A stretch of DNA of 32,000 nt from Jiangella aurantiaca (GCF_004349105.1 NZ_SMLB01000050.1:2393-34392); one strand, 5' to 3'; numbered from the stretch's first letter, positions 6,757 through 20,434 are shown. A program made the numbers and translations. The notes: generated from the sequence alone by a model not told the origin.

Positions 6757-6829
6757 GTCCCCATCGTCTAGCGGCCTAGGACTCCGCCCTTTCAAGGCGG
6801 CAACGCGGGTTCGAATCCCGTTGGGGATG
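6757..6829 (+). tRNA. tRNA-Glu(TTC): tRNA-Glu (anticodon TTC)
   Basis: Hand-folded cloverleaf. Acceptor GTCCCCA/TGGGGAT, anticodon stem CCGCC/GGCGG with loop CTTTCAA, and T-arm GCGGG-TTCGAAT-CCCGT. CCA is not encoded. Confidence 0.93.
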
Positions 6830-6874
6830 CGGTGTTCTGCTCCGGCAGGAACATCGGGCACGGCAGTACAGCAA

Positions 6875-6952
6875 GGTCCTGTGGAGCAGCTCGGAGTGCT
6901 CGCCGCCCTGTCAAGGCGGAGGTCGCGGGTTCAAGTCCCGTCAGGACCGCCA
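6875..6952 (+). tRNA. tRNA-Asp(GTC): tRNA-Asp (anticodon GTC), with encoded CCA
   Basis: Acceptor GGTCCTG/CAGGACC, D stem GAGC/GCTC, anticodon stem CCGCC/GGCGG with loop CTGTCAA, and T-arm GCGGG-TTCAAGT-CCCGT, followed by discriminator G and CCA. Confidence 0.95.
6908..6952 (+). repeat. attL core (inside the intact tRNA-Asp, from the anticodon loop to CCA)
   Basis: ctgtcaaggcggaggtcgcgggttcaagtcccgtcaggaccgcca is identical to 17188-17232. Confidence 0.9.
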
Positions 6953-6966
6953 GCAATACCAGCAGC

Positions 6967-8226
6967 TCAGAGGTCATCCTCTGGGCTGTTTTCATGTCCG
7001 GGGCCGGTCTCGTCGGCGGGCCGAGGCAGCGAAAAGGCATCGAACAGTCCCCTCACTCTGGTGCGTGCGCTTCCCGAGTCGTGCGTGTAGAGGTTGAGCG
7101 TCGTCGTCGCCTGTTCGTGCCCCATGACGCGCTGCACGTCGTTGACGGGCACGCCGTCGGAGACCAGCCAGGTCGCGTACGAGTGGCGCAGGTCGTGGAA
7201 CCGCAGCCCGCCGGAGGCCCGGCGAGACACCTCTTTGACGGCGGCGGCCTCGGTCTCGAAGGTCTCCGTCAGCTCTCGCCCGGCGTCGTCCTGCCACGTG
7301 CCCCGGTACACCTGCTCGCCCTCCTGGACCACCTTGCCCAGCAGTCCGGCCCGGACGAGCGCAGGACGCCACACACGGACGCGGAACAGCGTGCGTCGCA
7401 CCGGTCCCCCGGCCTGGTTCGTGAACACCTCCCCCGCGTCGCCCTGGCCGTAGCGGCGACGGTGGTCGCGTAGTGCGGTCACGACGAACGGCGGCAGCGG
7501 GACGACGCGGCGGCCGGCGCGCGACTTCGGGAACGGTTTGGTCGTGACGGCCCCGGCAACCTCGACGGCGACTCGCACGACGTGGACCTCCTCGGCGTCC
7601 AGGTCGACGGCGTCCCAGCGGAGGCCGGCGCACTCGCCCCACCGCAGCCCGGTTCCGCCCGCCAGCGCCACCAGGGCGCGATGACGCTCGGGAACGGCGG
7701 GCAGGAGCTGGCTCACGAACGCCTCACGGCTGATCGTGCGCTCGTCAGTGTCCGAACGACGGATCGCCGGGAGCTGGACGCCCTCGCACGGGTTGAAGGC
7801 CAGCAGCCGGTCACGGACGGCGAGCCGCATGATGCCCGCGAGCACGTGGAAGCACTTCCGCACGGTGGCCGGGGAGCGGGTGGCGTTCAGCTCCGAGACC
7901 CAGCGCTGGACCGACGAGTGGTCAATCTTGTCCAGCGGCACCGACCCCCAGCGCGGCAGCACGTGCGTCCGGAGGACGGAATCCGTGCGCACGGTGGTCG
8001 TCGTGGCGCTCGCCCGCCCAGCGACCCACGTCGCCGCGTAGTCGCTCAGACGGACCCGCCCGGCGCGAGGATCGACGTAGAGCCCGTGGTTCTTGGCCGA
8101 CTCGACCTCGGCGAGGAAGCGGGATGCCTCACGCTTGGTCGGGAACGACTTGGAGCGCTGGGCCCCGGACGGATCACGCCACGAGGCGCGGAAGGTCCCG
8201 GCGGTCGTCTTGCGTACGAAGCCCAT
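6967..8226 (-). CDS. int: tyrosine-type site-specific integrase
   Basis: Starts at the internal ATG at 8226 (MGFVRKTTAGTFRASWRDPSG..). Carries an N-terminal SAM-like/arm-binding region and catalytic-box motifs TGLRWGECAGLRWDAVDL, RFHDLRHSYATWL and GHEQATTTLNLYTH. Its start overlaps the xis stop by 1 nt. Confidence 0.93.
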   Translation of the reverse strand: MGFVRKTTAGTFRASWRDPSGAQRSKSFPTKREASRFLAEVESAKNHGLYVDPRAGRVRLSDYAATWVAGRASATTTTVRTDSVLRTHVLPRWGSVPLDKIDHSSVQRWVSELNATRSPATVRKCFHVLAGIMRLAVRDRLLAFNPCEGVQLPAIRRSDTDERTISREAFVSQLLPAVPERHRALVALAGGTGLRWGECAGLRWDAVDLDAEEVHVVRVAVEVAGAVTTKPFPKSRAGRRVVPLPPFVVTALRDHRRRYGQGDAGEVFTNQAGGPVRRTLFRVRVWRPALVRAGLLGKVVQEGEQVYRGTWQDDAGRELTETFETEAAAVKEVSRRASGGLRFHDLRHSYATWLVSDGVPVNDVQRVMGHEQATTTLNLYTHDSGSARTRVRGLFDAFSLPRPADETGPGHENSPEDDL

Positions 8227-8504
8227 CAGAACAGTCCGTCCTGGCCGGGGAGCAGCGGGCCGGGCTCCGGATCGGGCTCGAGGGTGACGTTCTCCAGCCA
8301 GTCGTGGAACGCCTGTTTGGGGATGACCCAGCGGCCGCCGAGCTTGCGTGCGGGGATGTCGCCGGAGCGCACGAGGGCGTAGGTGCCGCCGAGGGCGAGG
8401 TTCAGCAGCTCGGCGACCTCGGCGACGGAGTAGACGAGGGCGTCGACGCGGGGCTGTTGTCCTGGCGGCCGGTGGGCGTCGAGGCGGATCACGTTGTCGG
8501 GCAT
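8226..8504 (-). CDS. xis: excisionase-family helix-turn-helix DNA-binding protein
   Basis: 92 aa. VYSVAEVAELLNLALGGTYALVRSGDIPARKLGGRWVIPKQAFHDWL is the excisionase/MerR-like HTH pattern. The gene sits immediately upstream of int. Confidence 0.8.
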   Translation of the reverse strand: MPDNVIRLDAHRPPGQQPRVDALVYSVAEVAELLNLALGGTYALVRSGDIPARKLGGRWVIPKQAFHDWLENVTLEPDPEPGPLLPGQDGLF

Positions 8505-10063
8505 GGCGGGGTTCCTTCCGGGGAGGACGGGTCGGTTGCCGAAACATCACTGGACGGCGGTCCGGTGGCCTGTTTGGCGGCGTCGTACTGCTCGCGCCAG
8601 CGGCGGCGTTGTGCGATCGACTTGGCGACGGCCCACACGTAGGAGGGCGCGTCGGGGTCGCCGGGTCGGACCGGGGTCCAGATGTAGCGGGCCTTGCCGT
8701 CGGGTGCGGTGGCGGTTGCCGAGAGCTGGTCGTGGTCGTCCATCTCGATGCCGGCTTCGGCGAGGACGGCCCGGACGACGGCGGCCCGGTCGGCGCGGTG
8801 CTCGGTCAGCGTCTTGCCGGTCCACTTGCGCGAGACGAGGACGCGGCGGCCTCCGAGCCCCAGGTGGTCGCGGTCGTGGGCCTTGGATGTGCAGCGGCCG
8901 GGTTCCATGCCTGGCTTGGCATTCTTCGGCTGAGTGCCGTAGCGCAGCCAGTTCGCGCATGTCGGCGAGCACGGGAGCCAGCGGACTTCCTCGGCGAGGC
9001 GGTCGATGTGGGCGCGGCGAGCGGCCGAGATGCGGTTCGGGTCGTCGATGTCGAGTGGTTCGGCGATGGACTTGGTCAGGTACTTCGTCAGGTAGCCGAC
9101 GCGGCGGTCAGCGGCCGGTGTCCCGGCGAGGATGCCTTGCAGGTCGACCTGGACACCGAAGCGCAGCACGTGCACCGGCTCTGGTTCTTCGCCGAGGTCG
9201 AGGCCGTCGCCGTTGTCGACGTAGTCCATCGCCTCGTCCCAGGTCGGCAGCATCCAGCCGCCGTCATCGACGTAGCCGCCCTGTTCCTCGTCCCACGCCG
9301 GCCAGCCGTCGCGGTAGTGGTGGACGTGGTTGATGCCGGGCCACCAGACCTGGTGGTACGTGGCCGCGACGACCTGCTTGATGAGCTTGCGCGGGATCGC
9401 TCCACGGATGGCGGCGTGCAGGTGCGGCGCGAGGCGTTGTTGCGGTTCGACGGCGGCGAAGTACTGCACGTTGTAGCCGGTGGCGCGGCGAAGGTTCTGC
9501 CAGAACCGGTCGACGAGCTTCGGGAAGTGCATCGCGTCCAGCGCTGCACGCCGGTAGTCGTAGCGGTCCGGGTCGACCGGGACGCCCTCGTCGGTCACGC
9601 GCCCGTAGGACGGCATCGTGAGCGTGAGGAACATCGACGGCCGGTAGGTCTTGCCGTCCGGGGCATCGAAGGTCCGCCCGACGGTGTGGCCCGAGACCGG
9701 CAGCCGAGGTAGGTCAGGCACGTCCTCACGTCGTCTGGTGGACCGGACGCGCCGTTCTGTCGCGTCGTCCTCGTCGTCGACTGTGGGAGTCTCGTCGTCG
9801 CCCTCTGTGGCGTCGGGGCCGGCGAGCTCGGGTTCGGTGTCGAGGTGCCAGCCCTCGCGGCACTGCTGCATCCGCAACCGGCGAGCCCGCTCCGCGCAGG
9901 ACGGGCAGACCGCCTCACGGGTCGCGCCACACGCGATCGTCACCGTGCGCACGTCGCCGGTTGTCGTGTCGGTCACCCTCGACAGGACCGGACGCACGCA
10001 AGCGCCGACGAGCACAGCAGCACCGCGGACCAGCTCGCCGGACAGGGCCGGGCCGAGCACCAT
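8489..10063 (-). CDS. repSA: RepSA-type replication initiator protein
   Basis: Starts at the internal ATG at 10063 (MVLGPALSGELV..). Motifs CGATREAVCPSCAERARRL, FLTLTMPSYGRV and APHLHAAIRGAIPR match my memory of pSAM2 RepSA-family initiators. The start overlaps the upstream gene stop by 1 nt, and the 3' end overlaps xis by 16 nt. Confidence 0.85.
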   Translation of the reverse strand: MVLGPALSGELVRGAAVLVGACVRPVLSRVTDTTTGDVRTVTIACGATREAVCPSCAERARRLRMQQCREGWHLDTEPELAGPDATEGDDETPTVDDEDDATERRVRSTRRREDVPDLPRLPVSGHTVGRTFDAPDGKTYRPSMFLTLTMPSYGRVTDEGVPVDPDRYDYRRAALDAMHFPKLVDRFWQNLRRATGYNVQYFAAVEPQQRLAPHLHAAIRGAIPRKLIKQVVAATYHQVWWPGINHVHHYRDGWPAWDEEQGGYVDDGGWMLPTWDEAMDYVDNGDGLDLGEEPEPVHVLRFGVQVDLQGILAGTPAADRRVGYLTKYLTKSIAEPLDIDDPNRISAARRAHIDRLAEEVRWLPCSPTCANWLRYGTQPKNAKPGMEPGRCTSKAHDRDHLGLGGRRVLVSRKWTGKTLTEHRADRAAVVRAVLAEAGIEMDDHDQLSATATAPDGKARYIWTPVRPGDPDAPSYVWAVAKSIAQRRRWREQYDAAKQATGPPSSDVSATDPSSPEGTPPCPTT

Positions 10064-10392
10064 CACAGCCTTCCTGCCGGTCGCGGCGTGACCATGAACT
10101 CCGGCTCGTCGTCCTCCAGCCGGTACACGGGCAGCGGCCGGCGCAGCTCGGCGGGATCGACGGCCGGTGTGGCTTCCATCAGGCCGTGCACGCAGTGGCA
10201 GGCGTCCAGCGGACCGATCACGCCGAAGCCGTCGCAGTCGATGCACACGATCCACACCGACCTCTCGTGCAGACCGATGCAGCGTGGCGACGTGCACCAC
10301 CGGTATCCGCACCAGATGCACACCTGGGCGAAGTTCAGCCGCAGCGGGCGGAGCGTCGCCGCCGTGGCTGAGGCAAGTGCCTGGGTCGTCAT
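10063..10392 (-). CDS. small Cys-rich (putative zinc-binding) protein in the pra position of the element
   Basis: ATG at 10392 is preceded by GGAGG with a 5-nt spacer. 109 aa containing CIWC, CTSPRC, CIDC and CHC clusters. Translationally coupled to repSA. Confidence 0.6.
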   Translation of the reverse strand: MTTQALASATAATLRPLRLNFAQVCIWCGYRWCTSPRCIGLHERSVWIVCIDCDGFGVIGPLDACHCVHGLMEATPAVDPAELRRPLPVYRLEDDEPEFMVTPRPAGRL

Positions 10393-10437
10393 CGTGACCT
10401 CCGGGGATAGGAGATGACTCCATTCGACACGCAACAC

Positions 10438-10445
10438 GTTATAAC
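10438..10445. promoter_or_regulatory. candidate GntR/KorSA-like operator (perfect palindrome GTTATAAC) in the divergent control region
   Basis: GT-N4-AC palindrome within the 163-bp gap between the pra-position gene and the GntR gene, flanked by four ACACG repeats. Confidence 0.3.
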
Positions 10446-10555
10446 AAGTAGCACGACTGGACAACACGGAATCCGACACGCCAGGCTGACCGCCTCAGTT
10501 ACGCAAGCGACCGCCCAGGTGGAAGACTTGTTCTGTCGAGTAGAGGGGAGGGCCT

Positions 10556-11320
10556 GTGGCGGACTTCAGGGGTCGCCCTGCCTACCTGCAGATCGCTGAC
10601 GACATCCGCAGCCAGATCCTCGACGGCACGTTGCAGGCCGAGGACCGGTTGCCCAGCGAAGCCGACCTCATGGCCGACTACGGCGTCTCGCGCATCGTCG
10701 TGCGCAACGCCGTCGAAGTCCTCCGCTCCGAAGGACTCGTGGTCAAGCAGCAGGGGCGCGGCAGCTTCGTCCGCGCACAGCGACCACAACGCACCCGCGT
10801 CGTCGGCGACCTCTACAGCGAGCGCCCCGAAGGATCGCCGTTCGCGGCGTCAGCCCGAGCGTCCGGCCAGGTCCCGGAGTGGGAGTACCAGACCCGCCGC
10901 ACCACCGCATCCAAGACGATCGCCGACCGGCTCGGCATCGCGGCCGGCGACCCGGTGATGCGCACCAGCTATCGGTTCTTCGCCGACGGCGAGCCCGCGA
11001 TGCTCTCAACCTCGTTCGAACCCCTGGCCATCACCGAAGGCACACCCGTCGAACAACCCGAAGGCGGCCCCGTCACCGGCGTCGTGCCCCGGATGGACGC
11101 CATCGGCATCCACATCACCCACGTCGTCGAGGACGTCACCGGGCGGTCAGCGCGACCCTATGAGGCCGAGACACTGAAGGTCCCGGTCGGCGTGCCCATC
11201 CTCGCGATCGAACGCACCTACTACGCGAAGAGCCGGCCCGTCGAGACCGCCGACATCGTCGTCTCCTCCGACCGCTACGTCCTCTCCTACCGCCTCCCCG
11301 TGCCACCGCGGGCGGACTAG
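10556..11320 (+). CDS. GntR family (HutC/UTRA-type) transcriptional regulator, KorSA-like
   Basis: RLPSEADLMADYGVSRIVVRNAVEVLRSEGLVVKQQGRGSFV is a GntR wHTH, and the C-terminal length is consistent with a UTRA domain. GTG at 10556 lies after GAGGGGAGGG. The gene is divergent from the repSA operon, as korSA is in pSAM2. Confidence 0.9.
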   Translation: MADFRGRPAYLQIADDIRSQILDGTLQAEDRLPSEADLMADYGVSRIVVRNAVEVLRSEGLVVKQQGRGSFVRAQRPQRTRVVGDLYSERPEGSPFAASARASGQVPEWEYQTRRTTASKTIADRLGIAAGDPVMRTSYRFFADGEPAMLSTSFEPLAITEGTPVEQPEGGPVTGVVPRMDAIGIHITHVVEDVTGRSARPYEAETLKVPVGVPILAIERTYYAKSRPVETADIVVSSDRYVLSYRLPVPPRAD

Positions 11321-11694
11321 CCGGCACCTGCGTCTGTTGACCCTGCGAGAGGCTACGTCACCTGATGTCTGGCCCCGCCGCCTCGGATACCCGGACTCGC
11401 CCGCATGCCGATGATCGAGCGGTCGCAAGAAGCTGGCGGCGGCTTGTGCGATGTAGAACAGCACCTCACAACGTTGCGTTGCGCCGCCCAGCACGTCACG
11501 CCTAGTAAGGCTCGTCGATCCGCTCACCTTACGTGTAACCTGGTCCACCTATCTATCAGCCGCCTCACCTAGTGACACTGCTGTCTTGGTCCACTAGAGC
11601 ACGCACCGAAACTGCGGGCAAGTAGTACCTCAAATGATCCTGTCTCGCTGAGTTCCCTAATGCGTCGATTCCAAACAAGTTACAAGGGGGCGAC

Positions 11695-12204
11695 ATGGCC
11701 TATCGAAACAAACTGTACATCGCCTTCGACGGCGACAACGACATGCGCTGGTACCGCCTATTGACGGCATGGGAAGCCAATAAGAACATCGATTTCGACT
11801 TCCACAATGCTCATGACTTGCATCCGGCCCGAGACACGAGCCTGCCGGATTCCATTAAGGCGCAACTGCGCAAGCGGATGCAAAGCTCGAAGACGTTTCT
11901 GCTTTTGGTCGGGGAGCGGACCAAGTACATCCGCGGCTACATTCCATGGGAGATCGAGTACGCGCGCCACCTGGACCTGCCGATCGTCGTCACCAATCTA
12001 AACGACAAACGACGGTACGATTCCGATCTGTGTCCCAGTTCGATCCCGAGCGGTAAAGGCGCAGTGCACGTTTCCTATGAGGCACAAATCCTAAAGCACG
12101 CACTCGATAATTGGCCGATCTACTACGCCTCGAATCGGCAGAAGGTGCTTGACGGCGTGTGGCATTACGACGATGAGATCTACAAGAGCGTGGGCCTGGG
12201 ATAA
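11695..12204 (+). CDS. thsB: TIR-like domain protein (MTH538/ThsB-like, DUF1863-type)
   Basis: 169 aa. KLYIAFDGDNDMRWYRLL.. and ..KTFLLLVGERTKYIRGYIPWEIEYA match the ThsB TIR-like pattern, with a putative catalytic Glu at W85-E86. AAGGGGG RBS precedes the start. The sequence is lower in G+C. Confidence 0.8.
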   Translation: MAYRNKLYIAFDGDNDMRWYRLLTAWEANKNIDFDFHNAHDLHPARDTSLPDSIKAQLRKRMQSSKTFLLLVGERTKYIRGYIPWEIEYARHLDLPIVVTNLNDKRRYDSDLCPSSIPSGKGAVHVSYEAQILKHALDNWPIYYASNRQKVLDGVWHYDDEIYKSVGLG

Positions 12205-12269
12205 GCAGGCGGCGGCTCAAAGCCCTATTCTCCAGCCGGCTCGGAGCTCATACGATGAGGCTATAGCTT

Positions 12270-13127
12270 GTGACTCTCACGCGCGACCTTAGGAACAAGC
12301 GCTTCTGGCGGGGCCTTACTACGCACGGCCTCGCCGCTCTCGGTGCCCTATCCGCGACACTTGGGCTGTATGACCTCTTCTCGCCCGATTCCCTGGGAAG
12401 GCTCGACCTGCCCGAGATCATGCTAGTTCCCGCAGTCGCGCTCGCCTACGCCGCGTGGAAGTCATGGCCCTACCCAGTGGAGCAGCACTACGCGACGCCA
12501 GACACCAAGATCCGTTTAGTGACCGGCGATCTGTTCGAACAGGGCACTAACCTCGTCATCGGCATGGCGGATACCTTTGACATCGAAACGCCGCACATCA
12601 TTGCGACCGGAAGCGTGCAGGGCCAGTTCCTCGACCGTGTCTACCACCACGACGTGGCAGCCTTGCGCTCAGATCTAGAGGCTGCACTCATCGATAAGGT
12701 GCCGATTGAGACGGGTGTGGCGAAGCCCGGGAACACGGACCGCTACCCCCTGGGTACCGTCGCTACTATCTGCCACCAGCGCACTCACTATTTCTGTGTT
12801 GCCTATACGCGTATGGACGAGAACAACAATGTGTCGTCATCCATCGCAATATTGTGGGAAGCGCTAGAAAGACTTTGGGACGAGGTCCGGGCTCGCTCCA
12901 ACGGCGAGCCGGTCTCCGCGCCTGTGATCGGACTTGGACAGTCGGGCATGTCGACCGTCCTTCCCATCCAAGACGCCATTCGATTCCTCATCCTCTCATT
13001 CATGTTCGCTTCACGCCGCCAAAGAGTATGCGGGGAACTATTCATCGTAATTCGCCCACAGGACGAGAGGCGGATTGACATGCTTGAGATCCAAGAGTTC
13101 CTCCGGTCCTTGAGGTTGTCTTCGTGA
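12270..13127 (+). CDS. thsA: ThsA-like effector: two N-terminal TM helices plus a C-terminal ThsA-type Macro domain
   Basis: 285 aa. Hydrophobic segments GLTTHGLAALGALSATLGLYDLF and IMLVPAVALAYAAWKSW are followed by IRLVTGDLFEQGTNLVIGMADTFDIE..GSVQGQFLDRVY..APVIGLGQSGM, resembling PF20016/DUF6430. GTG start at 12270. Confidence 0.72.
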   Translation: MTLTRDLRNKRFWRGLTTHGLAALGALSATLGLYDLFSPDSLGRLDLPEIMLVPAVALAYAAWKSWPYPVEQHYATPDTKIRLVTGDLFEQGTNLVIGMADTFDIETPHIIATGSVQGQFLDRVYHHDVAALRSDLEAALIDKVPIETGVAKPGNTDRYPLGTVATICHQRTHYFCVAYTRMDENNNVSSSIAILWEALERLWDEVRARSNGEPVSAPVIGLGQSGMSTVLPIQDAIRFLILSFMFASRRQRVCGELFIVIRPQDERRIDMLEIQEFLRSLRLSS

Positions 13128-13555
13128 GCCATCTCGTTGTTCCAGATGTATACCCCTGTCCCTTCTGTGACTACCTTAGCGGTGCTCGACCGTATACGAT
13201 CCTCCACCGAGAAGCGGACGCAGCAATCCTCGTTACGCGTGAGCAGCGTGGAGCTTCCCACCTTCTGGTCGTTACTGAACGCCACGCCCCAACAATCCTC
13301 GAACTTCGCACCGCAGAGTCGCATGCGGTGATTGAACTAGTGCGCATGGCTGCCAGATTGATAGACCAGGCAGAACAGCGGCCGGGGATTAGCGTTTGGC
13401 AGAACAATGGCGCGGCCGCTCACCAGACGATACCTCACGTGCACTTTCATATCGCTGGCACACTCCCAGAAGGCGGTACCGATTGGGAGGAGGTTCACGA
13501 ACTCAGCATCGAAGAGACCGATGCCATGGCCGAGCGCCTGCGTGCGTACTTCTAG
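13124..13555 (+). CDS. HIT (histidine triad) family nucleotide hydrolase/transferase
   Basis: 143 aa with CPFC near the N-terminus and NNGAAAHQTIPHVHFHI (HxHxHxx). The GTG start overlaps the upstream stop (GTGA, 4-nt overlap). Confidence 0.88.
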   Translation: MSHLVVPDVYPCPFCDYLSGARPYTILHREADAAILVTREQRGASHLLVVTERHAPTILELRTAESHAVIELVRMAARLIDQAEQRPGISVWQNNGAAAHQTIPHVHFHIAGTLPEGGTDWEEVHELSIEETDAMAERLRAYF

Positions 13556-13667
13556 GCTGTAGAGGGCTAGGTAACGAGTTGTCCGCTACGCCGTCAAGAT
13601 CAGTCGAAACGCGACCCGACTCCCGCGCAGCGCCGTACATTGCTGGATTGAGCTATTGAGGATCAAG

Positions 13668-13688
13668 GCGGCGCGCTCCGCGCGCCGC
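13668..13688 (+). terminator. GC-rich hairpin (9-bp perfect stem, 3-nt loop) downstream of the HIT operon
   Basis: gcggcgcgc-tcc-gcgcgccgc. There is no U-tract. It lies about 110 nt after the HIT stop, at the point where composition returns to high G+C. Confidence 0.3.
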
Positions 13689-14203
13689 GTGGCCGCTCGC
13701 CCGCTCGCGTCCGGGCATGCGGCCTGGCGGCCGGTCCCTCCCGCTCGGCGGCGGCGGCCACACGCACGGGGACGACCCCTTGGCTAGACAACCGGAACAG
13801 TCACCGACAGCCGTCCCCCTCTACGCGGCCAGTCTCCGGCCTCCACTCCGCGCCTCAAGGGCGCTTCTCGTCACTATGTGACCGGCTTTCGCCGACCCTT
13901 GACCCGCTCCCAAGCGAACACATCATCGAGATCCAACGACCTGGTGACCCGGCGTATGACGCTCACCCTCACCTGCCGTCGAAGTAGCCGACAATATGAC
14001 GAGCAGGCAAGGAGGCACGGTCCGCCATACCGCCCGGCCAGAGACGAGGTCGTGCCCCGCATGACCCCAGGCGGTTCGACGACATTATCCCCGGGTTAAG
14101 CGTTGGGCGTCCGCTGGTCGAAAATGCCCCGGCCCCCTGCGCCCTGCCTCTCCGAGCGCGTGCCCGCGAGTTCGGTGTCAGGCGCTCCGACTAGGGTCGG
14201 CAC

Positions 14204-15292
14204 ATGCAAGCCGAGCTCGAAGAGACACTCCTCCTCCAGGAGGAATGGACAGCCGACAACACAGAGGCGATGCAGCGTCGCGGTGTCCTCGTTCGGCAGA
14301 TGATCCCTCAGTGGCTTCGACAACAGCTCAATGAACCGACCTCCACAGCCGTTATGAGTGACCTCGCCGTGGAGGGACGTGATGGCACCGGCAGAAAGAC
14401 TGAGATCCCCTGGACTCGTGTCTACTCAGCGCGCCGATCACCCTCCGCAACCCAGGGCTGGTACATCGTCTATCTGTTCAGCGCGTTCGGAGATCGGGTC
14501 TACATCTCCTTGAACCAGGGGACGACAAGGTGGGAAGGCGGCGAGTTCCGCCCGCGCGCTGGCGAGGAGCTTGCCGCCCGCGTCTTATGGGCGCGGAATG
14601 TCCTCGGCATCACCTGGGCCAATGAACTGGCCTTGGATATTTCACTGGAGGCTCGGCGGTCCAACCTGGGTCATCAGTACGAGCTCGGCAACGTGGTGGC
14701 TATTGAGTATCCGCTCAACAGCATCCCGGACGATGCCGCCCTGGCCTCTGACCTGCGGCGCATGATCGACTGGCTCGGGCGGATCTACGAGGCTGAGGAG
14801 ACCTCACTGACGATTCCGGGTGAACCGGCGGCCGAGATCGCGGACGCCCTCGTCGCGATACGTCAGGCCGCAGGCTCGGCTCGCAAGACCGGGCAGGGTT
14901 TCCGCCTGAACACCGCTGAGAAGCTCGCGATTGAGAAGCATGCCGTTCAGGTTGTCACGAAGCACTACGAGGATCTCGGTTACAGCGTCGATGATGTCGG
15001 AACCAAGCAGCCGTTCGATCTCGATGTGAAGCGAGGAGACATCCATCTAAGTGTGGAGGTCAAGGGCACCACATCCGTCGGTGCCGAGGTCATCCTGACC
15101 AGCGGCGAAGTGAATCACCACCGCGAGCGGTTCCCGAACAACTCCCTGGCCATCGTCCACTCGATCGAGCTCAACAGGTCTGATGAGGCCCCCATGGCCA
15201 CCGGGGGCGAGCTGCACATCGTCAGCCCGTGGGAGGTCGAGGACTCCGACCTCATCCCACTGGCCTTCAAGTACCAGACAGGGCTGACCTGA
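14204..15292 (+). CDS. MrcB-like N-terminal domain (DUF3578) fused to a DUF3883 nuclease-like domain; candidate modification-dependent (type IV) restriction protein
   Basis: 362 aa. The N-terminal half, GRKTEIPWTRVYS..ATQGWYIVYLFSAFGDRVYISLNQG, matches the DUF3578 pattern. The C-terminal half, EKHAVQVVTKHYEDLGYSVDDVGTKQPFDLDVKRGDIHLSVEVKGTTS..VILTSGEVNHH, matches the DUF3883 PD-(D/E)xK-like pattern. Confidence 0.8.
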   Translation: MQAELEETLLLQEEWTADNTEAMQRRGVLVRQMIPQWLRQQLNEPTSTAVMSDLAVEGRDGTGRKTEIPWTRVYSARRSPSATQGWYIVYLFSAFGDRVYISLNQGTTRWEGGEFRPRAGEELAARVLWARNVLGITWANELALDISLEARRSNLGHQYELGNVVAIEYPLNSIPDDAALASDLRRMIDWLGRIYEAEETSLTIPGEPAAEIADALVAIRQAAGSARKTGQGFRLNTAEKLAIEKHAVQVVTKHYEDLGYSVDDVGTKQPFDLDVKRGDIHLSVEVKGTTSVGAEVILTSGEVNHHRERFPNNSLAIVHSIELNRSDEAPMATGGELHIVSPWEVEDSDLIPLAFKYQTGLT

Positions 15293-15330
15293 GACTGTGC
15301 ACGAGCGATATGACGACCGCGCTTAGGTTC

Positions 15331-15708
15331 TTACACAGCGTGAAGACGGATGGGCTTGTTGAGTGCGTCCGCCAGGTGAGAGAGGTCGCCGGGGTCGCTG
15401 GTCACGACCAGGTCGCCGCGTGACAGGGCGGAGATGACGACCGTGGCGTCGACAACGTCGCTCGTCCTCGCAGTGGCACACGCAGCGCCGGCTTCGCGGG
15501 CGAGTTGTTCGCTCATCGGCTCGATCTTGCAGCCACGCAGCAGGCGTGAGAGCTGGTGTTGAGGGCCGCCGCGCCATGCCTGCGCCAGGACGGCGGCGGG
15601 CACGACGGGGCGGATCTCGTGGCGCAGAGCGTCACGGTGCAACGCCCAGATATCGACTCGATTGGCTTCCGCCGCGACCAGCGCGCCGGTGTCGTAAGTG
15701 ATGCCCAT
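15331..15708 (-). CDS. vapC: PIN-domain type II toxin (VapC family)
   Basis: 125 aa. MGITYDTGALV.. supplies the N-terminal acidic residue, and DVVDATVV and VVTSDPGDL are PIN acidic motifs. The start overlaps the antitoxin stop by 1 nt. Confidence 0.85.
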   Translation of the reverse strand: MGITYDTGALVAAEANRVDIWALHRDALRHEIRPVVPAAVLAQAWRGGPQHQLSRLLRGCKIEPMSEQLAREAGAACATARTSDVVDATVVISALSRGDLVVTSDPGDLSHLADALNKPIRLHAV

Positions 15709-15962
15709 CAGTCGGTGATGACGCCCTCGCGGACCAGCACGTCGTGCGCCTTGCGCGCTTCATCGGCCGGGATCGGTCCGTGCTCGGCCTCGAACTCCTC
15801 AACGGCCAGCAGGCCATCGAGGACGGCCGCGCGCTCCGCCGGCATGATTGCAGCCAGGCGGACTCCGTGGTCGGTCAGGTAGATGACCTCCCCGGTGGAC
15901 GTGGCTCGGCTGATCACCTCGCTGAGGTGATCCTTCGCGTCCTGCACCGGCATCTCGGACAT
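15708..15962 (-). CDS. Phd/YefM-type antitoxin
   Basis: Starts at the internal ATG at 15962, giving 84 aa. MSEMPVQDAKDHLSEVISRATSTGEVIYLTDHGVRLAAIMP is the typical Phd/YefM N-terminus. Confidence 0.8.
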   Translation of the reverse strand: MSEMPVQDAKDHLSEVISRATSTGEVIYLTDHGVRLAAIMPAERAAVLDGLLAVEEFEAEHGPIPADEARKAHDVLVREGVITD

Positions 15963-16123
15963 AGTCCCAGCGTACGGCAGAAGCTCAGCAGACACAGCAG
16001 TCCTCACTCTCGATCGAGACGACGCAACGCTTGGGAACGATCGCTCGTCGTTGCAGCTTGTTGTACGGAACGGCTGATCCCGTCGCACCATCAGCGGATG
16101 CGACGAGACCAGCCGACACATCG

Positions 16124-16417
16124 TTATAGGTCGTCGCGGCCAGCTCGTCGGTGGATTCGTTCGACGGCCTCGCGGATCGCCTCGTGGAGCAGTTCCGCCT
16201 CACGGGTCCCGAGGCGGACCACAGTGCTGCGGCCGTGACGCGGCACGGTCGTCAGCTCGACCCCAGTCGTCGAGCTATGCGGGCGGACGACGTTGACGCC
16301 GAGCATCCAGCGTCCGGAGTCGGCCGGGATCGACTCCAGATAGTGCCGGTGGATGGTGTGGGCGCCGGCCTCGTCGCACCACTTCACCGGGCAGTCCACC
16401 CGGTCTGCGGCGATCAC
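16124..16417 (-). CDS. hypothetical protein (CPxxWC..H..H motif, small actinobacterial mobile-element type)
   Basis: 97 aa. The GTG start overlaps the upstream stop by 4 nt. Codon usage is consistent with high-G+C coding sequence. No family was recognised with confidence. Confidence 0.55.
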   Translation of the reverse strand: MIAADRVDCPVKWCDEAGAHTIHRHYLESIPADSGRWMLGVNVVRPHSSTTGVELTTVPRHGRSTVVRLGTREAELLHEAIREAVERIHRRAGRDDL

Positions 16418-16938
16418 AGGGCGTCCTCAGTCTCGGCGCGCTGGACCTTGCGCAGATCACGGACAACGGACTCCAGCTCGCCCAGCGTCACCCCCGCTTC
16501 CGACAGCACGCCGGCAATGCGGTCGACCACCTGGCGGTGTGCTTGGCGGGTGAGCTCGTAGCCGTCCTGCGGGTAGAGCACCCCCGGCTTCATCAGCTCC
16601 AGACCGCCGACACGCTCGACCATGCGATTGAGCTGTTCGACGATCTCGGCATCGGTCGCACCGGGTAGGTACCGCTCCCGGACATTGGCAAGCAGCTTCG
16701 GCGTCCACATCGCCTGTTGTGCGATATCGGCGATGCGCACCAGATCGGCGGCGAGCCGTCGCGCCTCCTTCGGCAGCAGGTCGAACTGCGCGTACATCTC
16801 CGTCTCGAACGGCTTGATCTCCACATCGATGTGGGCATCGCCGTGCAGGATGTGCGCGACCATCTCGCCGACCCCCTCTTCGACGAAGGGTGCGCGGGCG
16901 ATGATCTCTCGGGTATCGGGTTCGGGTAGCTTGACCAC
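16414..16938 (-). CDS. hypothetical protein
   Basis: 174 aa. GTG at 16938 is preceded by GGGAGAG with about a 6-nt spacer. The composition is balanced and non-Arg/Pro-biased, unlike antisense artefacts. No family was recognised. Confidence 0.62.
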   Translation of the reverse strand: MVKLPEPDTREIIARAPFVEEGVGEMVAHILHGDAHIDVEIKPFETEMYAQFDLLPKEARRLAADLVRIADIAQQAMWTPKLLANVRERYLPGATDAEIVEQLNRMVERVGGLELMKPGVLYPQDGYELTRQAHRQVVDRIAGVLSEAGVTLGELESVVRDLRKVQRAETEDAL

Positions 16939-17187
16939 GGGTCTCTCCCTGGTAGGTCAGGTTGGGATCAAGTCCCCGGTCCGGTGTTAGCGCACCGGCC
17001 GGGGGCGACTACTCATGAGGACGCGCAGGCATCAGGTGGGCCGCGTGGCCGTGCAGCGACGAGGCAGCGATGAGGCATCAGAACCCGCACCGCCGACGAC
17101 CAGCGGCCGATATCAACCGCCATACTGACCTGCGCAGATGCACCACCAACGGCAACGGACGACAGCGGACGGCGAGCCCGATCCGCA

Positions 17188-17232
17188 CTGTCAAGGCGGA
17201 GGTCGCGGGTTCAAGTCCCGTCAGGACCGCCA
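17188..17232 (+). repeat. attR core (duplicated 3' part of tRNA-Asp)
   Basis: Identical 45 bp to 6908-6952. The upstream sequence does not complete a tRNA. Confidence 0.9.
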
Positions 17233-17243
17233 AGAACAGCAGG

Positions 17244-17520
17244 TCAGGCGATCTCTGCGTGATCTTGTGGGTTGTCGGCGGTGCGGTTGGTCCGCACATA
17301 GTCCGCAGCTCGGACTATGTCGTCCAGTCGGTCCGTCACGGCCCCCAAGGCGTTGTCGAACAAGTCGGCATAGGCGTCGAGCGTCATCGATGCTTTGGCG
17401 TGGTGAGCATATGCGTTCGACCGCCCTTCACATTTGCCCCAGCCGACACGGCGAGCGACGCAGCGGTGTGGCGCAACTCGTGGCGCGCGGAAGTCCTGCG
17501 AACCCGGTCCCAGAACCATC
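17244..17520 (-). pseudogene. relic C-terminal fragment of a second tyrosine integrase (frameshifted and truncated)
   Basis: Minus-strand translation gives ..ARHELRHTAASLAVSAGANVK in one frame (HxLRH box at about 17465-17482). It then continues as ..HHAKASMTLDAYADLFDNALGAVTDRLDD..* in another frame down to the stop at 17244. An in-frame TGA lies just upstream of the HELRH segment. The fragment ends 11 bp from the attR repeat, mirroring the int/tRNA geometry. Confidence 0.7.
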
Positions 17521-17654
17521 ACGCTGTAGGCGAGGAGTCGGCTCTCGCCGGTGACGTGGAGCAGGCTTGCCCATGTCTGTGCGCCTCCTGCCGTCACACC
17601 ACGGCTGCTCGGTGAGCCAGCGGATCGTGTCCTCGTGCCGGCCGCGGCAGCACG

Positions 17655-18587
17655 CTAGAAGGCGAGGAAGCGGGCGGGGTTCGAGACGAGGATCGCGTGG
17701 ACGAGCTCGTCCCCGCCCGCCCGCGCGACCCGGGGAACGAACACGGAGGGGAGATAGGCCATCCCGGGGAGCCCGCCGTAGGCATGGAAGGACGAGCGGC
17801 GCGCCACGTCGCCGCCCAGTAACAGGCGTTCCGCTCCGCCTCGCTCGGCGACGGAGACGAGGCAGTCGACGAGCATGCTGTCCGGCCAGTACTTCGTCCG
17901 CCCGGCGCCGTCGTAGCCGAGGTATACCCCTGCAGTAGCCAGCTCGGCGTGCAAAACCGGGTCCGGGTTGCGGTCGGCGTGCGCGAGAGCCACGTCGGCC
18001 GGGGAGACCCCGGCTCCGGCGAGCAGCTCGACCACGTTCGTGGCCGCCGTGCCGAGCTCGAGGTGACACACGATCGGCGCTCCGGTGGCCCGATTCGCTT
18101 CGGCGGCGGCGAGCAACACCCGGCGTTCGAAGCCGCTGATCGACCAGTAGCCGGTCCCGACCTTGATCACACCAGCGCGGACGTCCGTCGGCGGTCCGTG
18201 AAGTCCGATGCTGTCGGCGTCCGAGCATCCTTCCACGATGTCGAGGACGAAGCGCTCCGCGAGGTCGTCCGGCTGGACCGTACGTAGCCAGTGGTCCGGC
18301 CCATAGTGGGCCTCGCGATGCACGCCCGTCGCCAGCACGATGTGAACGCCGGTCCGCTCGGCGATCGTCGCGATACCGAGCGGGTCCCGGCCACATCCCA
18401 GCGGCGTCAGCTCGACAACGGCGTCGATGCCGGCGTCGCGCAGTTCCGCGGTCTCGGCTGCCGACCGGTCGACGTCGTCGAGCTCGTCACCGGCCAGCAG
18501 CGGTGAGCGCATGAGCAGGTGCTCGTGGTAGTCGGTACGACCGAGCTCGTCGGGTTGGATGTCGCCCCTCACAGTGCGGATGAGCAC
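17655..18587 (-). CDS. phosphotriesterase-related protein (PTE/PHP family amidohydrolase-fold hydrolase, possibly a lactonase)
   Basis: 310 aa. LGRTDYHEHLLM (HxH), ..VELTPLGCGRD.. and IVLATGVH match the PTE homology protein pattern. GTG start at 18587. Confidence 0.82.
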   Translation of the reverse strand: MLIRTVRGDIQPDELGRTDYHEHLLMRSPLLAGDELDDVDRSAAETAELRDAGIDAVVELTPLGCGRDPLGIATIAERTGVHIVLATGVHREAHYGPDHWLRTVQPDDLAERFVLDIVEGCSDADSIGLHGPPTDVRAGVIKVGTGYWSISGFERRVLLAAAEANRATGAPIVCHLELGTAATNVVELLAGAGVSPADVALAHADRNPDPVLHAELATAGVYLGYDGAGRTKYWPDSMLVDCLVSVAERGGAERLLLGGDVARRSSFHAYGGLPGMAYLPSVFVPRVARAGGDELVHAILVSNPARFLAF

Positions 18588-18588
18588 G

Positions 18589-19563
18589 TCACGAGCGCAT
18601 CGCAGTGGCTACGGCGGAGAGCCGTTCGATCGCCGAGTCATCGAGGTTGAGGTCGAAGGCCTCGTCGATAACGGCGCTCCACCCGTGCACGAAATAGCGC
18701 CAGCCGTCCTCGATCGTGAGCTGTCGGACCGTTTCCTGCGCCCGGGCCTGATGCAGGAAGTCGAGCTCGCCCCGATAGTTGAGCTCCCACACGAGGCCGC
18801 GCTCGGGAAAGCAGCCCTCGGCGGTGATGGGGGAGCCGGGACGGTCCTTGCCCAAACCCGTCGCGTTGATCACGAGGGACCCGGGCGGGAGCTCGCCCAT
18901 CAGCGTGTCGTTGACTCGAGGATCGGCGTTGGCGACGTAGACGAACTCGGGACGCGGGACAGGCTGCTCCTGACGCTGGTGGACAGCCCGGCACTCGTGA
19001 AGCCGTTCGACCCCACGGTTGACCATTGTGATGCGCCGCGGGCGGTCGGCGGCGTCCGGCCGGGTCGCGAGGTAGAGCGAGATCGCTAGGCCGGACCCTC
19101 CCGCGCCGATGCACAGCACCTCCGCCTCGCCGGCGAAGCGGCCGGCCGGGACGAATGCCGCCAAGGACCGGCCCGCCGTGATGGGGTCCTTCGCGTGGCC
19201 GCGAAGCAGACCGTTCCGCTTGGAGATACACGACACCTCGCCGGTTAGGTTCGCCAGCGGATCGAGCTCGTCGAACAGATCGGCCGCCGCCTGGAGAAGC
19301 CGGACCTTGTGCGTGGTGACCAGCGCGCCGTGATGTCGCGAGTCGCCCGCGATATCGCGCACCACCTCGCGGTACCGCTCGGGTGGAGTATCGAGTTTCA
19401 GGTCGACAGGATCGAGGCGGACGTCACCCAGCCCCAGCTCCGCGGCCCAGGCCGGGAACACCTGGTTGATGGACGACTGGGTCGCGGTCACGCCGATGAA
19501 GCCGAATCGCGATCCGCGGGCGATCCTCCCCACTCCGACCTCCTCACCGCCGATGGCCGGCAC
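18589..19563 (-). CDS. shikimate/quinate dehydrogenase-like oxidoreductase
   Basis: 324 aa. Carries FGFIGVTATQSSINQVFPAWAAELGL, ALVTTHK, the Rossmann motif VLCIGAGGSGLAISLYL, and VINATGLGKD. It lies immediately upstream of the PTE-like gene with a 1-nt gap. GTG start at 19563. Confidence 0.72.
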   Translation of the reverse strand: MPAIGGEEVGVGRIARGSRFGFIGVTATQSSINQVFPAWAAELGLGDVRLDPVDLKLDTPPERYREVVRDIAGDSRHHGALVTTHKVRLLQAAADLFDELDPLANLTGEVSCISKRNGLLRGHAKDPITAGRSLAAFVPAGRFAGEAEVLCIGAGGSGLAISLYLATRPDAADRPRRITMVNRGVERLHECRAVHQRQEQPVPRPEFVYVANADPRVNDTLMGELPPGSLVINATGLGKDRPGSPITAEGCFPERGLVWELNYRGELDFLHQARAQETVRQLTIEDGWRYFVHGWSAVIDEAFDLNLDDSAIERLSAVATAMRS

Positions 19564-19606
19564 CAGCGCCGCCTTGACGGTAACGAAAGATCACTCGTAA
19601 TGTCAT

Positions 19607-19620
19607 CCTGTACGGTCAGG
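19607..19620. promoter_or_regulatory. operator candidate, copy 1 of a shared 14-bp palindrome (CCTGTACGGTCAGG, within ATCCTGTACGGTCAGGAT)
   Basis: Lies in the 121-bp divergent intergenic region between 19563(-) and 19685(+). It has 2 mismatches to the ideal palindrome CCTGTACGTACAGG. TTGACG lies about 30 bp upstream. Confidence 0.45.
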
Positions 19621-19684
19621 ATACAAGGCCGAGTCTCATGAGCCATACCAGTAGCACGGCAGTTCGAGTCGGAGCGCGCGTGTC

Positions 19685-20434
19685 ATGAAGACGGCAGTCG
19701 TCACGGGCGCGACGAAGGGGATCGGCCGGGCGGCGGCGATTGCCCTCGCGGACGACGGCTGGTGGGTCATGGCCACCGGACGGGACCCGGAGGCTGGCGC
19801 CGCGGTGCAGAAGGAGCTCGAGGATCGGTCGGGCGGCCTGTTCTATCCGGCGGACTTGACCGACCCGGCCACCCCGGAAGATCTTGTCGCGCGGACGCTC
19901 GCCGAAACGGCGTCCCTCGACCTGCTGGTCAACAACGCCGGCATCCACCACGAGGCCTCCGTGGAGAACACGACAGCCGAGATCTACGACCGGGTCATGG
20001 CCCTCAACCTGCGAGCAGCGGTGCTGCTGACGGCACTGGCCATCCCGGCCATGCGCCGAGGTGGGGGAGGCACGATCGTCAATGTATCCAGCGAAGCCGG
20101 CGTGATCGGTTTCCCGAACCAGCTGGCCTACAACCTGTCAAAGGCCGGTCTGGTGATGCTTACCCGCTCGATCGTCGCGGACCACACCGGCGACAGTATT
20201 CGAGCGGTGACGGTATGCCCAGGTACGACCCGGACACCGCTCGTGCAGCAGATCATCGACGAGGCAGACGACCCCGCCGCGATGGAGCAACGGATGGCGT
20301 CGTTGCGGCCGGCCGGCCGGCTCGGTCGTCCGGAGGAGATCGCGGCCGTCATCGCGTTCGCCGCATCGGACCGTGCGCCGTACATGACCGGGACGGAGAT
20401 CGTCGTCGACGGTGGCAACGTCGCTGTGACATAG
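19685..20434 (+). CDS. SDR family oxidoreductase
   Basis: MKTAVVTGATKGIGRAAA (TGxxxGxG), NNAG, and YNLSKAGLVMLT (YxxxK). Confidence 0.9.
   Translation: MKTAVVTGATKGIGRAAAIALADDGWWVMATGRDPEAGAAVQKELEDRSGGLFYPADLTDPATPEDLVARTLAETASLDLLVNNAGIHHEASVENTTAEIYDRVMALNLRAAVLLTALAIPAMRRGGGGTIVNVSSEAGVIGFPNQLAYNLSKAGLVMLTRSIVADHTGDSIRAVTVCPGTTRTPLVQQIIDEADDPAAMEQRMASLRPAGRLGRPEEIAAVIAFAASDRAPYMTGTEIVVDGGNVAVT

Follow-up and report, generated by a model that had tools for sequence, protein, structure and literature searches.

The closest described relatives of the element considered here, a 10.3 kb island inside a tRNA-Asp gene in a 32,000-nucleotide stretch of Jiangella aurantiaca DNA (the whole of which is called the window), are the AICEs (integrative and conjugative elements of actinomycetes) typified by pSAM2 and pMR2. 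Among Actinomycetota, AICEs are the chief conjugative elements, and detection tools rely on traB as their signature gene (PMC9513070, PMC10201445), so that elements without Tra, such as the one in the window, are invisible to these surveys. Among the AICEs, pSAM2 has been assigned to the pC194 family of rolling-circle replicons (PMC2440964; PMC3218068), for which CTTGAT is the nick-site consensus (PMC2440964). Defence systems have been reported on 103 of 1061 AICEs, all of which carry Tra by the definition used (Botelho 2023, PMC10201445). Some AICE-like islands that lack a component have been speculated to be genuine helper-dependent mobile elements (PMC3218068, PMC3429521, PMC9513070), and whether such islands are decaying remnants or genuine helper-dependent elements is a question raised by Bordeleau et al. 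(PMC3429521). It was also proposed earlier that Tra could act in trans to mobilize DNA carrying clt-like sequences (PMC3429521).

With a probability of roughly 0.7, we consider the island to be a non-self-transmissible descendant of a RepSA-type AICE which belongs to a monophyletic Tra-less lineage of Jiangella and related soil Actinomycetota. The int, xis and repSA genes, the regulator gene and both att sites are present while a translocase is absent, which bears out the original prediction, made from the sequence of this stretch, of an AICE derivative without its conjugation module. Genes were identified by Pfam, PADLOC and NCBIfam, and PHROGs was also searched. The att repeat begins 2 nt before the anticodon and extends to the 3' end of tRNA-Asp; its exact 45-bp core lies within a longer direct repeat of 60 nt (6903-6962 and 17183-17242) that is 92% identical, and a 32-nt att core occurs twice in the window against zero occurrences expected by chance. 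A site-specific recombinase whose flanking att repeats lie at a tRNA 3' end, which is one defining feature of AICEs (Ghinet 2011, ICEfinder), is therefore found here, and a second feature, a replication initiator of the RepSA, RepAM or Prim-Pol type, was identified through the Pfam RepSA family. Two further features were not found in the element, namely an FtsK/SpoIIIE-type double-stranded DNA (dsDNA) translocase (Tra, also TraB or TraSA) and the spread (spd) genes together with a Nudix (Pif) gene, and the element falls outside the AICE definition for want of its defining transfer gene. With a module of its own for integration and excision but no apparatus for transfer, the island resembles an integrative mobilizable element (IME) in this respect.

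The integration and replication module was observed to be intact. The integrase contains the catalytic residues R194, H345xxR348, H371 and Y381, and its start overlaps the xis stop by 4 bp. The product of the repSA open reading frame (ORF) is identical to the called protein P0001 and contains the motifs HLH (aa 214-216) and YLTKY (aa 324-328), both of which are 98-100% conserved among 77 relatives. As read in the sequence, these appear to be the HxH metal-binding and catalytic tyrosine motifs of an initiator of the pC194/phiX174 type; weak matches to PF23343 and to a PHROG rolling-circle initiator family were also observed. The original prediction held that the integration, replication and regulation module had been kept, and named inactivation of RepSA or Int as a finding that would speak against it. 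Both proteins retain their motifs and the backbone is under purifying selection, as described below. The accompanying label of a pSAM2-type element stands at the level of the Pfam family (PF20199) and falls at the level of the pSAM2 equivalog, because the NCBIfam model NF041486 gave only 29.1 bits against a cut-off of 700 bits and the RepSA of the window is closer to that of pMR2 (47% identity). The most similar RepSA homologues were found in Jiangella and Phytoactinopolyspora.

A non-coding segment of about 310 nt, conserved in all members of the lineage, separates the two cargo slots. A profile of this segment also matches Tra-positive RepSA AICEs of Jiangella, Phytoactinopolyspora, Kribbella, Nocardioides, Cryptosporangium and others, invariably on the repSA strand, and the 3' end is the part most widely conserved. 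A perfect GC stem of 7-9 bp with a loop of 3-4 nt, placed 0-1 nt before CTTGA(T/C)C…AGAG…CAAnTCGGCA, was observed in 40 of 43 RepSA elements from many actinobacterial genera (for example L002, L009, L012, L018 and L042), and the same motif is present in a non-coding region of pMR2 (L090, around position 2451, minus strand; E = 2e-9). The stems comprise at least ten distinct complementary sequences and thus contain compensatory changes. Because the stem covaries and the motif beside it is the nick consensus of the pC194 family, the hairpin and CTTGAT are read as the predicted double-strand origin of RepSA; the juxtaposition of a CTTGAT nick site and a hairpin would be that of a pC194/phiX174-type replicon. 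The 5' half of the segment is an imperfect palindrome, which might act as a single-strand origin or bind a protein. In some AICEs (L014, L044, L047 and others), part of this half is located just downstream of repSA (~11500-11650). We also considered the segment as a known RNA and rejected this, as no Rfam family matched and its single-strand folding energy resembles that of shuffled sequence (z = -0.68). The hairpin is accepted despite this value because covariation supports its stem.

Transfer genes were sought by several routes and all were negative. The motifs [AG]xxxxGK[ST] and GxxGxGK do not occur in any of the six frames of 6800-17400, and tblastn with two FtsK-like Tra proteins of close relatives gave no match across the window. 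With a hidden Markov model (HMM) of 57 lineage-specific Tra proteins, the best E value was 0.78 for the element and 0.15 for L035, an unrelated locus. The relaxed expression, tblastn and the lineage HMM were added because a strict Walker-A expression is too strict for this family and misses proteins such as the FtsK-like Tra of L083, which has GATGSGKG. An HMM of the conserved 138-aa spd-like protein (spd138) had no match in the element, and a NUDIX Pfam match is absent from the window; among the relatives, only L007 has a NUDIX gene. The absence of any FtsK-like or Walker-A ORF, on which the original prediction rested and for which it had proposed HMM searches for FtsK/Tra, Spd and Nudix, was thus confirmed.

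In the nearest Tra-positive relatives (L083, L002/L084 and L091/L092) and in pMR2, the regulator faces the spd genes, FtsK, a small ORF, repSA, xis and int. The lost block would therefore have been located between regulator and repSA, where the Tra-less clade has only a small gene for a protein with eight invariant cysteines. It had been proposed that the conjugation module was swapped for defence genes which fill the vacated slot. The module is indeed absent and defence cargo is indeed present, but the exchange is not positional, since tra and spd lie between regulator and repSA, as part of the repSA operon, and not where the defence genes are found. This separate position, together with the occurrence of the cargo slots in Tra-positive kin, points to a deletion of tra/spd rather than an exchange at one site. 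In L092, a Tra-positive element of J. endophytica with MmeI-type cargo, we noticed that the translocase (8589-10004) was called as two ORFs of 249 and 191 aa; it is possible that this represents a frameshift and hence a loss of Tra in progress.

The small gene sits exactly at the tra/spd position and is specific to the clade, and one could suppose that this protein, unk174 or unk97 serves as a non-FtsK transfer protein and that the element is still self-transmissible. Among about 90 loci, the small gene is confined to Tra-less elements, and every metagenome locus has it immediately 5' of repSA. Its family comprises about 183 representative clusters at 50% identity and is uncharacterized, with no matches in Pfam or PDB searches; the AlphaFold2 (AF2) model has a mean confidence (pLDDT) of 35 and is unusable. 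The label pra, after the gene at this position in pSAM2-family elements, has no homology support. In a metagenome-assembled genome (MAG) element, L008, the small gene is tandemly duplicated (1754-2083 and 2071-2460), and in several homologues from databases a single protein has the domain twice. We regard a self-transmissible element of this kind as exceedingly improbable. An NTPase motif is absent from all frames of the element, the candidates are only 97-174 aa long, and unk174 is also present in Tra-positive elements. The model of unk174 (pLDDT 82), a four-stranded sheet with helices, has neither a P-loop nor a RecA-like fold. We know of no mechanism by which such small proteins move dsDNA between cells. 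It had been anticipated that the ORFs at 16124-16938 could prove to be a divergent translocase; given the unk174 model, this does not appear to be so. Neither unk97 nor unk174 matched any family in Pfam, PADLOC, PHROG or NCBIfam, a Foldseek search of PDB with the unk174 model gave no match with E < 0.1, and a search of JGI metagenomes with unk174 yielded no further members of the element family. Residues 11-77 of unk174 (four strands and a helix) show a weak likeness to the PC4/Sub1-type single-stranded DNA-binding fold (probability 0.8-0.85, E ~0.3-1), which is not significant, though such a fold would suit a rolling-circle element.

The comparison set contained about 100 related loci; 80 RepSA loci came from a scan in which each species was represented by one genome. 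The whole backbone of the window recurs in six elements, at a protein identity of 80-98%: L003 (J. ureilytica), L004 and L006 (both J. rhizosphaerae), L005 (J. endophytica), L007 (J. asiatica) and L085 (J. alkaliphila). They are 8.9-10.3 kb long and have the order att, unk174, unk97, Phd, PIN, slot B, conserved segment, slot A, gntR facing the small gene, repSA, xis, int and att(tRNA). Five of the six occupy the same tRNA-Asp site, and the same att pair flanks L003, L005, L006, L007 and L085; the sixth, L004, is located at tRNA-Pro with a 47-bp repeat and an integrase only 66% identical to that of the window. A comparison with related tRNA-Asp elements, as had been suggested, thus shows the same backbone with differing cargo. 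More distant examples are the MAG contig L008 (RepSA 71%, tRNA-Met), in which ABM-XRE regulators and two small-gene copies accompany RepSA without Tra, and the soil metagenome loci L094, L096 and L097, in which GntR faces the small gene, RepSA (50-53%), xis and int at tRNA-Ala or tRNA-Val and no FtsK match was found in any frame. The design is common to at least eight elements.

An FtsK-like gene ends just upstream of repSA in 67 of 81 RepSA loci (L002-L082), usually with a gene for the 138-aa spd-like protein. The remaining 14 include the six of the Tra-less clade and four truncated contigs whose upstream sequence is shorter than 2.2 kb; L035 and L077 are interrupted by transposases, and L011 (TPR proteins) and L061 (a 1,677-aa ORF) have other genes upstream, where no transposase was found. 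L011, L035 and L077 were rejected as independent Tra-less examples because the latter two are disrupted by insertion sequences (IS) and L011 holds unrelated genes; for L061 the ORFs were only listed. In a neighbour-joining tree of 77 RepSA proteins with 200 bootstraps, a single clade (196/200) unites all elements that have the small gene and no Tra. It is nested among Tra-positive AICEs and is sister to those of Jiangella (L002, L084, L091 and L092) and Phytoactinopolyspora. This indicates that the loss of tra is a character of the clade, probably of single origin, and not scattered decay.

Table 1. Features of the island and its integration site (positions in the window)
Feature	Position	Strand	Evidence and remarks
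tRNA-Glu	6757-6830	+	upstream of tRNA-Asp
tRNA-Asp (GTC), integration target	6875-6952	+	ARAGORN; Rfam tRNA 59.7 bits; 3' part forms attL
attL core, 45-bp exact direct repeat	6908-6952	+	anticodon loop to tRNA 3' end
Tyrosine integrase (int)	6967-8229	-	~420 aa; PF00589 E 8e-21; PHROG 1 integrase E 5e-59
Excisionase, HTH_17 (xis)	8226-8504	-	PF12728 E 4e-15; PHROG excisionase families
RepSA-family rolling-circle replication initiator	8489-10063	-	524 aa; PF20199 E 5.8e-94, 316 bits
Small protein, 8 invariant Cys	10066-10392	-	~110 aa; directly upstream of repSA; alignments of homologues
Divergent promoter/operator region (inferred role)	10396-10555	.	between small gene and gntR; palindrome GTTATAAC
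GntR/UTRA (HutC-type) regulator in KorSA position (gntR)	10556-11320	+	GntR E 1.7e-18, UTRA E 8.5e-19 (Pfam)
Cargo slot A, type II Thoeris operon	11324-13635	+	GC 0.57-0.61
ThsB (TIR)	11695-12204	+	PADLOC ThsB1 PDLC00429 3.7e-66, ThsB2 1.2e-58; Pfam ThsB_TIR
ThsA (Macro)	12270-13127	+	PADLOC ThsA2 5.9e-121; Pfam ThsA_Macro; 2 hydrophobic N-terminal segments
ThsC (HIT)	13124-13555	+	PADLOC ThsC2 6.5e-69; Pfam HIT
Conserved non-coding segment, predicted RepSA origin	13636-13949	-	~310 nt; between cargo slots; all members
CTTGAT nick motif	13662-13667	-	directly after hairpin
Predicted double-strand origin hairpin	13668-13688	-	GC stem
Cargo slot B	13950-15330	+	origin to PIN
MrcB_N-NOV_C (DUF3883) protein	14204-15292	+	MrcB_N E 3.4e-35, NOV_C E 2.6e-6 (Pfam)
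PIN-domain toxin (VapC-like)	15331-15708	-	Pfam PIN 22.8 bits, just below 23.6-bit cut-off
Phd/YefM-type antitoxin	15708-15965	-	NCBIfam phd_fam 28.9 bits vs 20.8 cut-off; Pfam PhdYeFM 29.1 bits
unk97, conserved backbone gene	16124-16417	-	83-90% identical in six relatives; dN/dS 0.17-0.30
unk174, conserved backbone gene	16414-16938	-	18 clusters, nearly all Jiangella
attR core, second 45-bp repeat copy	17188-17232	+

The contents of the two cargo slots differ in every member and are mostly recognized defence genes of low GC (0.50-0.63). Slot A of the window contains the Thoeris operon, with PADLOC matches to ThsB, ThsA2 and ThsC2 that span the full length of the proteins. The operon had been described as Thoeris-like, and can now be placed more sharply: the gene content, a ThsB TIR, a ThsA Macro and a ThsC HIT protein, is that of the PADLOC type II model, and the full-length matches are to ThsB2, ThsA2 and ThsC2. 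The third gene, for a HIT-family hydrolase, begins shortly before thsA ends, and the role of ThsC in type II signalling is perhaps the turnover of the signal molecule. In slot B, the MrcB_N-DUF3883 protein is a candidate modification-dependent restriction-type defence gene, judging from its domains, and has no secure PADLOC match. The island therefore carries defence cargo as predicted, in the form of the Thoeris II operon and the candidate MrcB_N-DUF3883 gene. Slot A of the relatives holds Pycsar (PycC and PycTM) in L004, a 280-aa unknown protein in L005, Fic/DOC in L006, NUDIX in L007, a Swt1-like HEPN with a 107-aa protein in L003 and DUF6414 in L085; slot B holds, in the same order, PDC-S19 / DUF3644, a GmrSD_N/NsnA-like protein with a RiboL-PSP HEPN, an OLD/GajA-like (Gabija-like) ATPase-TOPRIM, GmrSD_N, a 523-aa unknown protein and two unknown genes.

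The slots are sharply bounded. Homology between members breaks at the gntR stop (window 11323), at the edges of the origin segment and at the PIN stop (15330); similarity to the relatives ends about 3 nt past the gntR stop and resumes at the PIN stop codon. Homologues of the cargo genes of the window were sought in the other loci as a direct sign of cassette exchange and none were found. The Tra-positive L086 has the same arm, with unk174, (unk97), Phd, PIN, cargo, origin and cargo in this order, and other Tra-positive relatives also carry defence-type cargo: L091 has ApeA, and L092 has a restriction-modification gene of the MmeI type. The cargo slots thus belong to the whole AICE group and are not a replacement for tra.

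Selection on the backbone was examined by pairwise Nei-Gojobori estimates of the ratio of nonsynonymous to synonymous divergence (dN/dS) against relatives. For the nine backbone genes (int, xis, repSA, the small gene, gntR, PIN, phd, unk97 and unk174), dN/dS was 0.03-0.30 in comparison with five relatives of 92-98% identity, at dS of about 0.2-0.3. As an example, the values were 0.08-0.27 for int, 0.03-0.10 for xis, about 0.11 for repSA and about 0.13 for the small gene. Against the divergent L007 and for the swapped int of L004 they rose to 0.21-0.59. Purifying selection together with intact catalytic motifs argues against a decaying remnant, and the view that the element is not one is supported on these sequence grounds.

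Several points weigh against our reading of the element. The backbone dS (0.17-0.29) is similar to that of the neighbouring chromosomal metallophosphoesterase gene (0.21-0.34), and six of the seven close members, the window included, are located at the same tRNA-Asp site. Together with the syntenic left flank, this suggests that the close members may have co-diverged with their hosts with little recent movement. A search for clt-like clusters of 8-mer repeats gave only three-copy chance repeats inside coding DNA. Non-coding DNA in common with the Tra-positive L002 and L084 is limited to the origin segment, to which L086 adds about 70 bp upstream of unk174. In addition, the tree is distance-based and built on a single protein, some members of the small-gene lineage do decay, as the metagenomic branch L098-L102 has a frameshifted RepSA and Int, and all functional steps (excision, replication and transfer) are inferred from sequence. 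We noticed that L098-L102, from five soil metagenome samples, represent one element with the same frameshifts in both genes, an IS110 transposase and an M4 peptidase gene.

These observations in part favour the main rival, that the island is a domesticated and immobile AICE remnant which was fixed at tRNA-Asp in the Jiangella ancestor, is inherited vertically and acts as a chromosomal defence island only, with int, xis and repSA persisting for a host-level reason or by inertia. The similar dS of backbone and flanking gene, the syntenic left flank and the site shared by 6/7 close members would all be expected of it. Furthermore, pMEA-like AICEs are reported to have mainly co-evolved with their hosts in the integrated form (PMC2440964), and AICE remnants without tra are already known (PMC3218068; PMC9513070). 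However, dN/dS of 0.03-0.27 over a dS of about 0.25 in int, xis, repSA and the small gene is unexpected if the mobility genes are unused, and the origin and both att sites are intact. Truly decaying RepSA loci look otherwise, having IS elements and frameshifts. The clade also uses five tRNA targets (tRNA-Asp, tRNA-Pro, tRNA-Met, tRNA-Ala and tRNA-Val), and in J. rhizosphaerae a second copy with a swapped integrase is present at tRNA-Pro (L004) beside the one at tRNA-Asp (L006), with backbones 86-88% identical. Remnants of the int-proximal arm were found just outside attR in L005 (1473-1646 and 3209-3677), L003 (3082-3186), L006 (2840-2957) and L085 (9651-9753), which points to past tandem insertions, or accretion scars, at tRNA-Asp. 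Weighing both sides, we judge domestication to be unlikely.

The two J. rhizosphaerae elements differ in integrase (66% for L004 and 96% for L006 in identity to that of the window), tRNA target and cargo, which looks like swapping of integrase modules. The L005 remnant consists of 430 bp of the int 3' end with origin-like fragments; the window has about 10 nt of such similarity.

The size of about 10 kb and the layout, in which int, xis, a regulator and a replication module with its origin accompany variable defence cargo, are also reminiscent of a phage satellite of the P4-like or phage-inducible chromosomal island (PICI) kind, which would excise and replicate when triggered by a helper phage and spread in hijacked capsids. 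Four conserved uncharacterized proteins (the small protein, unk97, unk174 and the 523-aa protein of L003) could hide interference genes. This origin seems very improbable to us, as the PHROG matches are confined to integrase, excisionase, Rep and antitoxin families with no structural, packaging or capsid-redirection matches, no relatives were found in IMG/VR or GenBank phages, and bona fide Tra-positive AICEs have the replication module, the origin and unk174 in common with the element.

For a non-self-transmissible AICE descendant, the following course can be proposed. The GntR regulator would repress the operon of the small gene, repSA, xis and int, and upon derepression Xis and Int would excise a circle at the 45-bp core. 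RepSA would then nick at CTTGAT and rolling-circle replication would follow, while the PIN/Phd pair would stabilize the element. Cargo could turn over when co-resident elements recombine, for which gntR, the origin and PIN-Phd would supply the homology arms. Cell-to-cell spread could not be autonomous and would depend on the FtsK-like Tra of a co-resident Tra-positive AICE in trans or on cis-mobilization from a tandem array. Possible helpers are the Tra-positive AICEs L002 of J. ureilytica and L086 of J. alkaliphila, which reside together with the Tra-less L003 and L085, respectively, and have origin segments closely similar to theirs. An increase in defence-gene dosage driven by RepSA, which had been offered as speculation, would be compatible with the placement of the origin between the cargo slots.

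A more far-reaching proposal is that the Tra-less small-gene clade represents a previously unrecognized class of element, a replicative parasite or satellite of AICEs. Such an element would keep int, xis, RepSA and the origin for excision and amplification, and its 8-Cys protein, replacing tra/spd, would sense or hijack the dsDNA translocase of a co-resident AICE. Exchangeable anti-phage cassettes flanking the origin would be its payment to the host, and RepSA acting at the shared CTTGAT origin would drive cassette exchange and possibly a boost in defence copy number. With all its parts taken jointly, we hold this proposal to be rather doubtful.

Among the other backbone genes, the adjacent PIN and Phd genes, which meet at 15708, have the arrangement of a type II toxin-antitoxin pair, the PIN score being marginal. 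The PIN toxin is 91-95% identical in five relatives, and the pair is missing entirely from L003. The dS of the PIN gene, 0.48-0.62, is about twice that of the neighbours phd, unk97 and unk174 (0.23-0.45) with low dN, for which recombination where slot B ends is a possible cause. The GntR/UTRA regulator is 97-98% identical in five relatives with dN/dS of 0.03-0.05. The 3' end of gntR occurs in two variants across the family, and L003 and L004 are similar over the 60 nt upstream of the gntR stop and at the gntR-proximal end of slot A while their cargo differs, which suggests a mosaic junction. Across 11-14 kb of the window, the GC content drops from about 0.70 to 0.57-0.61. Beyond attR, the window contains ordinary sugar-metabolism genes. 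In this part of the chromosome (17233-20000, compared with the flanks of L003-L007 and L085) synteny is absent between Jiangella species, whereas the left flank is syntenic, and the region downstream of tRNA-Asp therefore varies independently of the element.

The Tra-less lineage, being conserved, monophyletic, under purifying selection and accompanied by Tra-positive kin in the same genomes, offers a concrete test system for the question of remnants versus helper-dependent elements. Defined by comparison as a covarying hairpin with CTTGATC, the predicted RepSA origin is of use in annotating AICEs and in vector building. The two slots that flank the origin provide a defined place to search for new defence genes in high-GC actinobacteria, where the candidates at present are the MrcB_N-DUF3883 protein of the window, the 523-aa protein of L003, the 280-aa protein of L005 and the 198-aa, 188-aa and DUF6414 proteins of L085.

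Compared with the known systems, the element resembles the pMR2/pSAM2-type AICEs (te Poele 2008, PMC2440964; Ghinet 2011, PMC3218068) in its integration at a tRNA 3' end by a tyrosine integrase and an HTH_17 excisionase, its repSA-xis-int operon, RepSA rolling-circle initiator and GntR/UTRA KorSA-like regulator, and its size of about 10-11 kb; the CTTGAT-type origin is shared with pMR2. It differs from them in having no FtsK/SpoIIIE Tra, spd or Nudix/Pif, in about 4 kb of defence cargo, in the clade-specific 8-Cys gene before repSA and in failing the pSAM2 equivalog model. AICE remnants, DAICEs and putative mobilizable integrating elements (PMC3218068, PMC3429521, PMC9513070) are likewise AICE-like islands minus one canonical component. 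Unlike the remnants, the Tra-less state here is that of a conserved clade under purifying selection and not of scattered decay, and unlike the DAICEs (Choufa 2022, PMC9513070), which still have traB, the lineage cannot be found by pipelines that rely on a traB signature.

A conserved backbone with sharply bounded variable slots and member-specific anti-phage systems is also known from P4-like satellites, PICIs, the hotspots of SXT/R391 integrative and conjugative elements (ICEs), pipolins (PMC11551731) and defence-carrying ICEs, IMEs and AICEs (PMC10201445). The backbone in the window differs from these in being an Actinomycetota RepSA rolling-circle replicon whose slots flank the origin, and in having no phage-derived genes, relaxase or origin of transfer (oriT). 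Component-lacking AICE-like islands, defence cargo on about 10% of AICEs and hotspots in satellites, ICEs and pipolins are thus already known or proposed; the literature searched contained no description of a Tra-less RepSA lineage that is conserved and monophyletic, has defence slots flanking its origin and carries a Cys-rich gene specific to the clade. Finally, IMEs and the mobilizable genomic islands (MGIs) of SXT likewise have their own integrase and excisionase, no transfer machinery and potential helpers in the same genomes. They mimic the oriT of the helper and use its relaxase, whereas the helper here would be a dsDNA translocase that recognizes clt, of which none was identified in the element. 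The island would therefore work like an AICE in its integration and replication, and like an IME or MGI in its presumed transfer.

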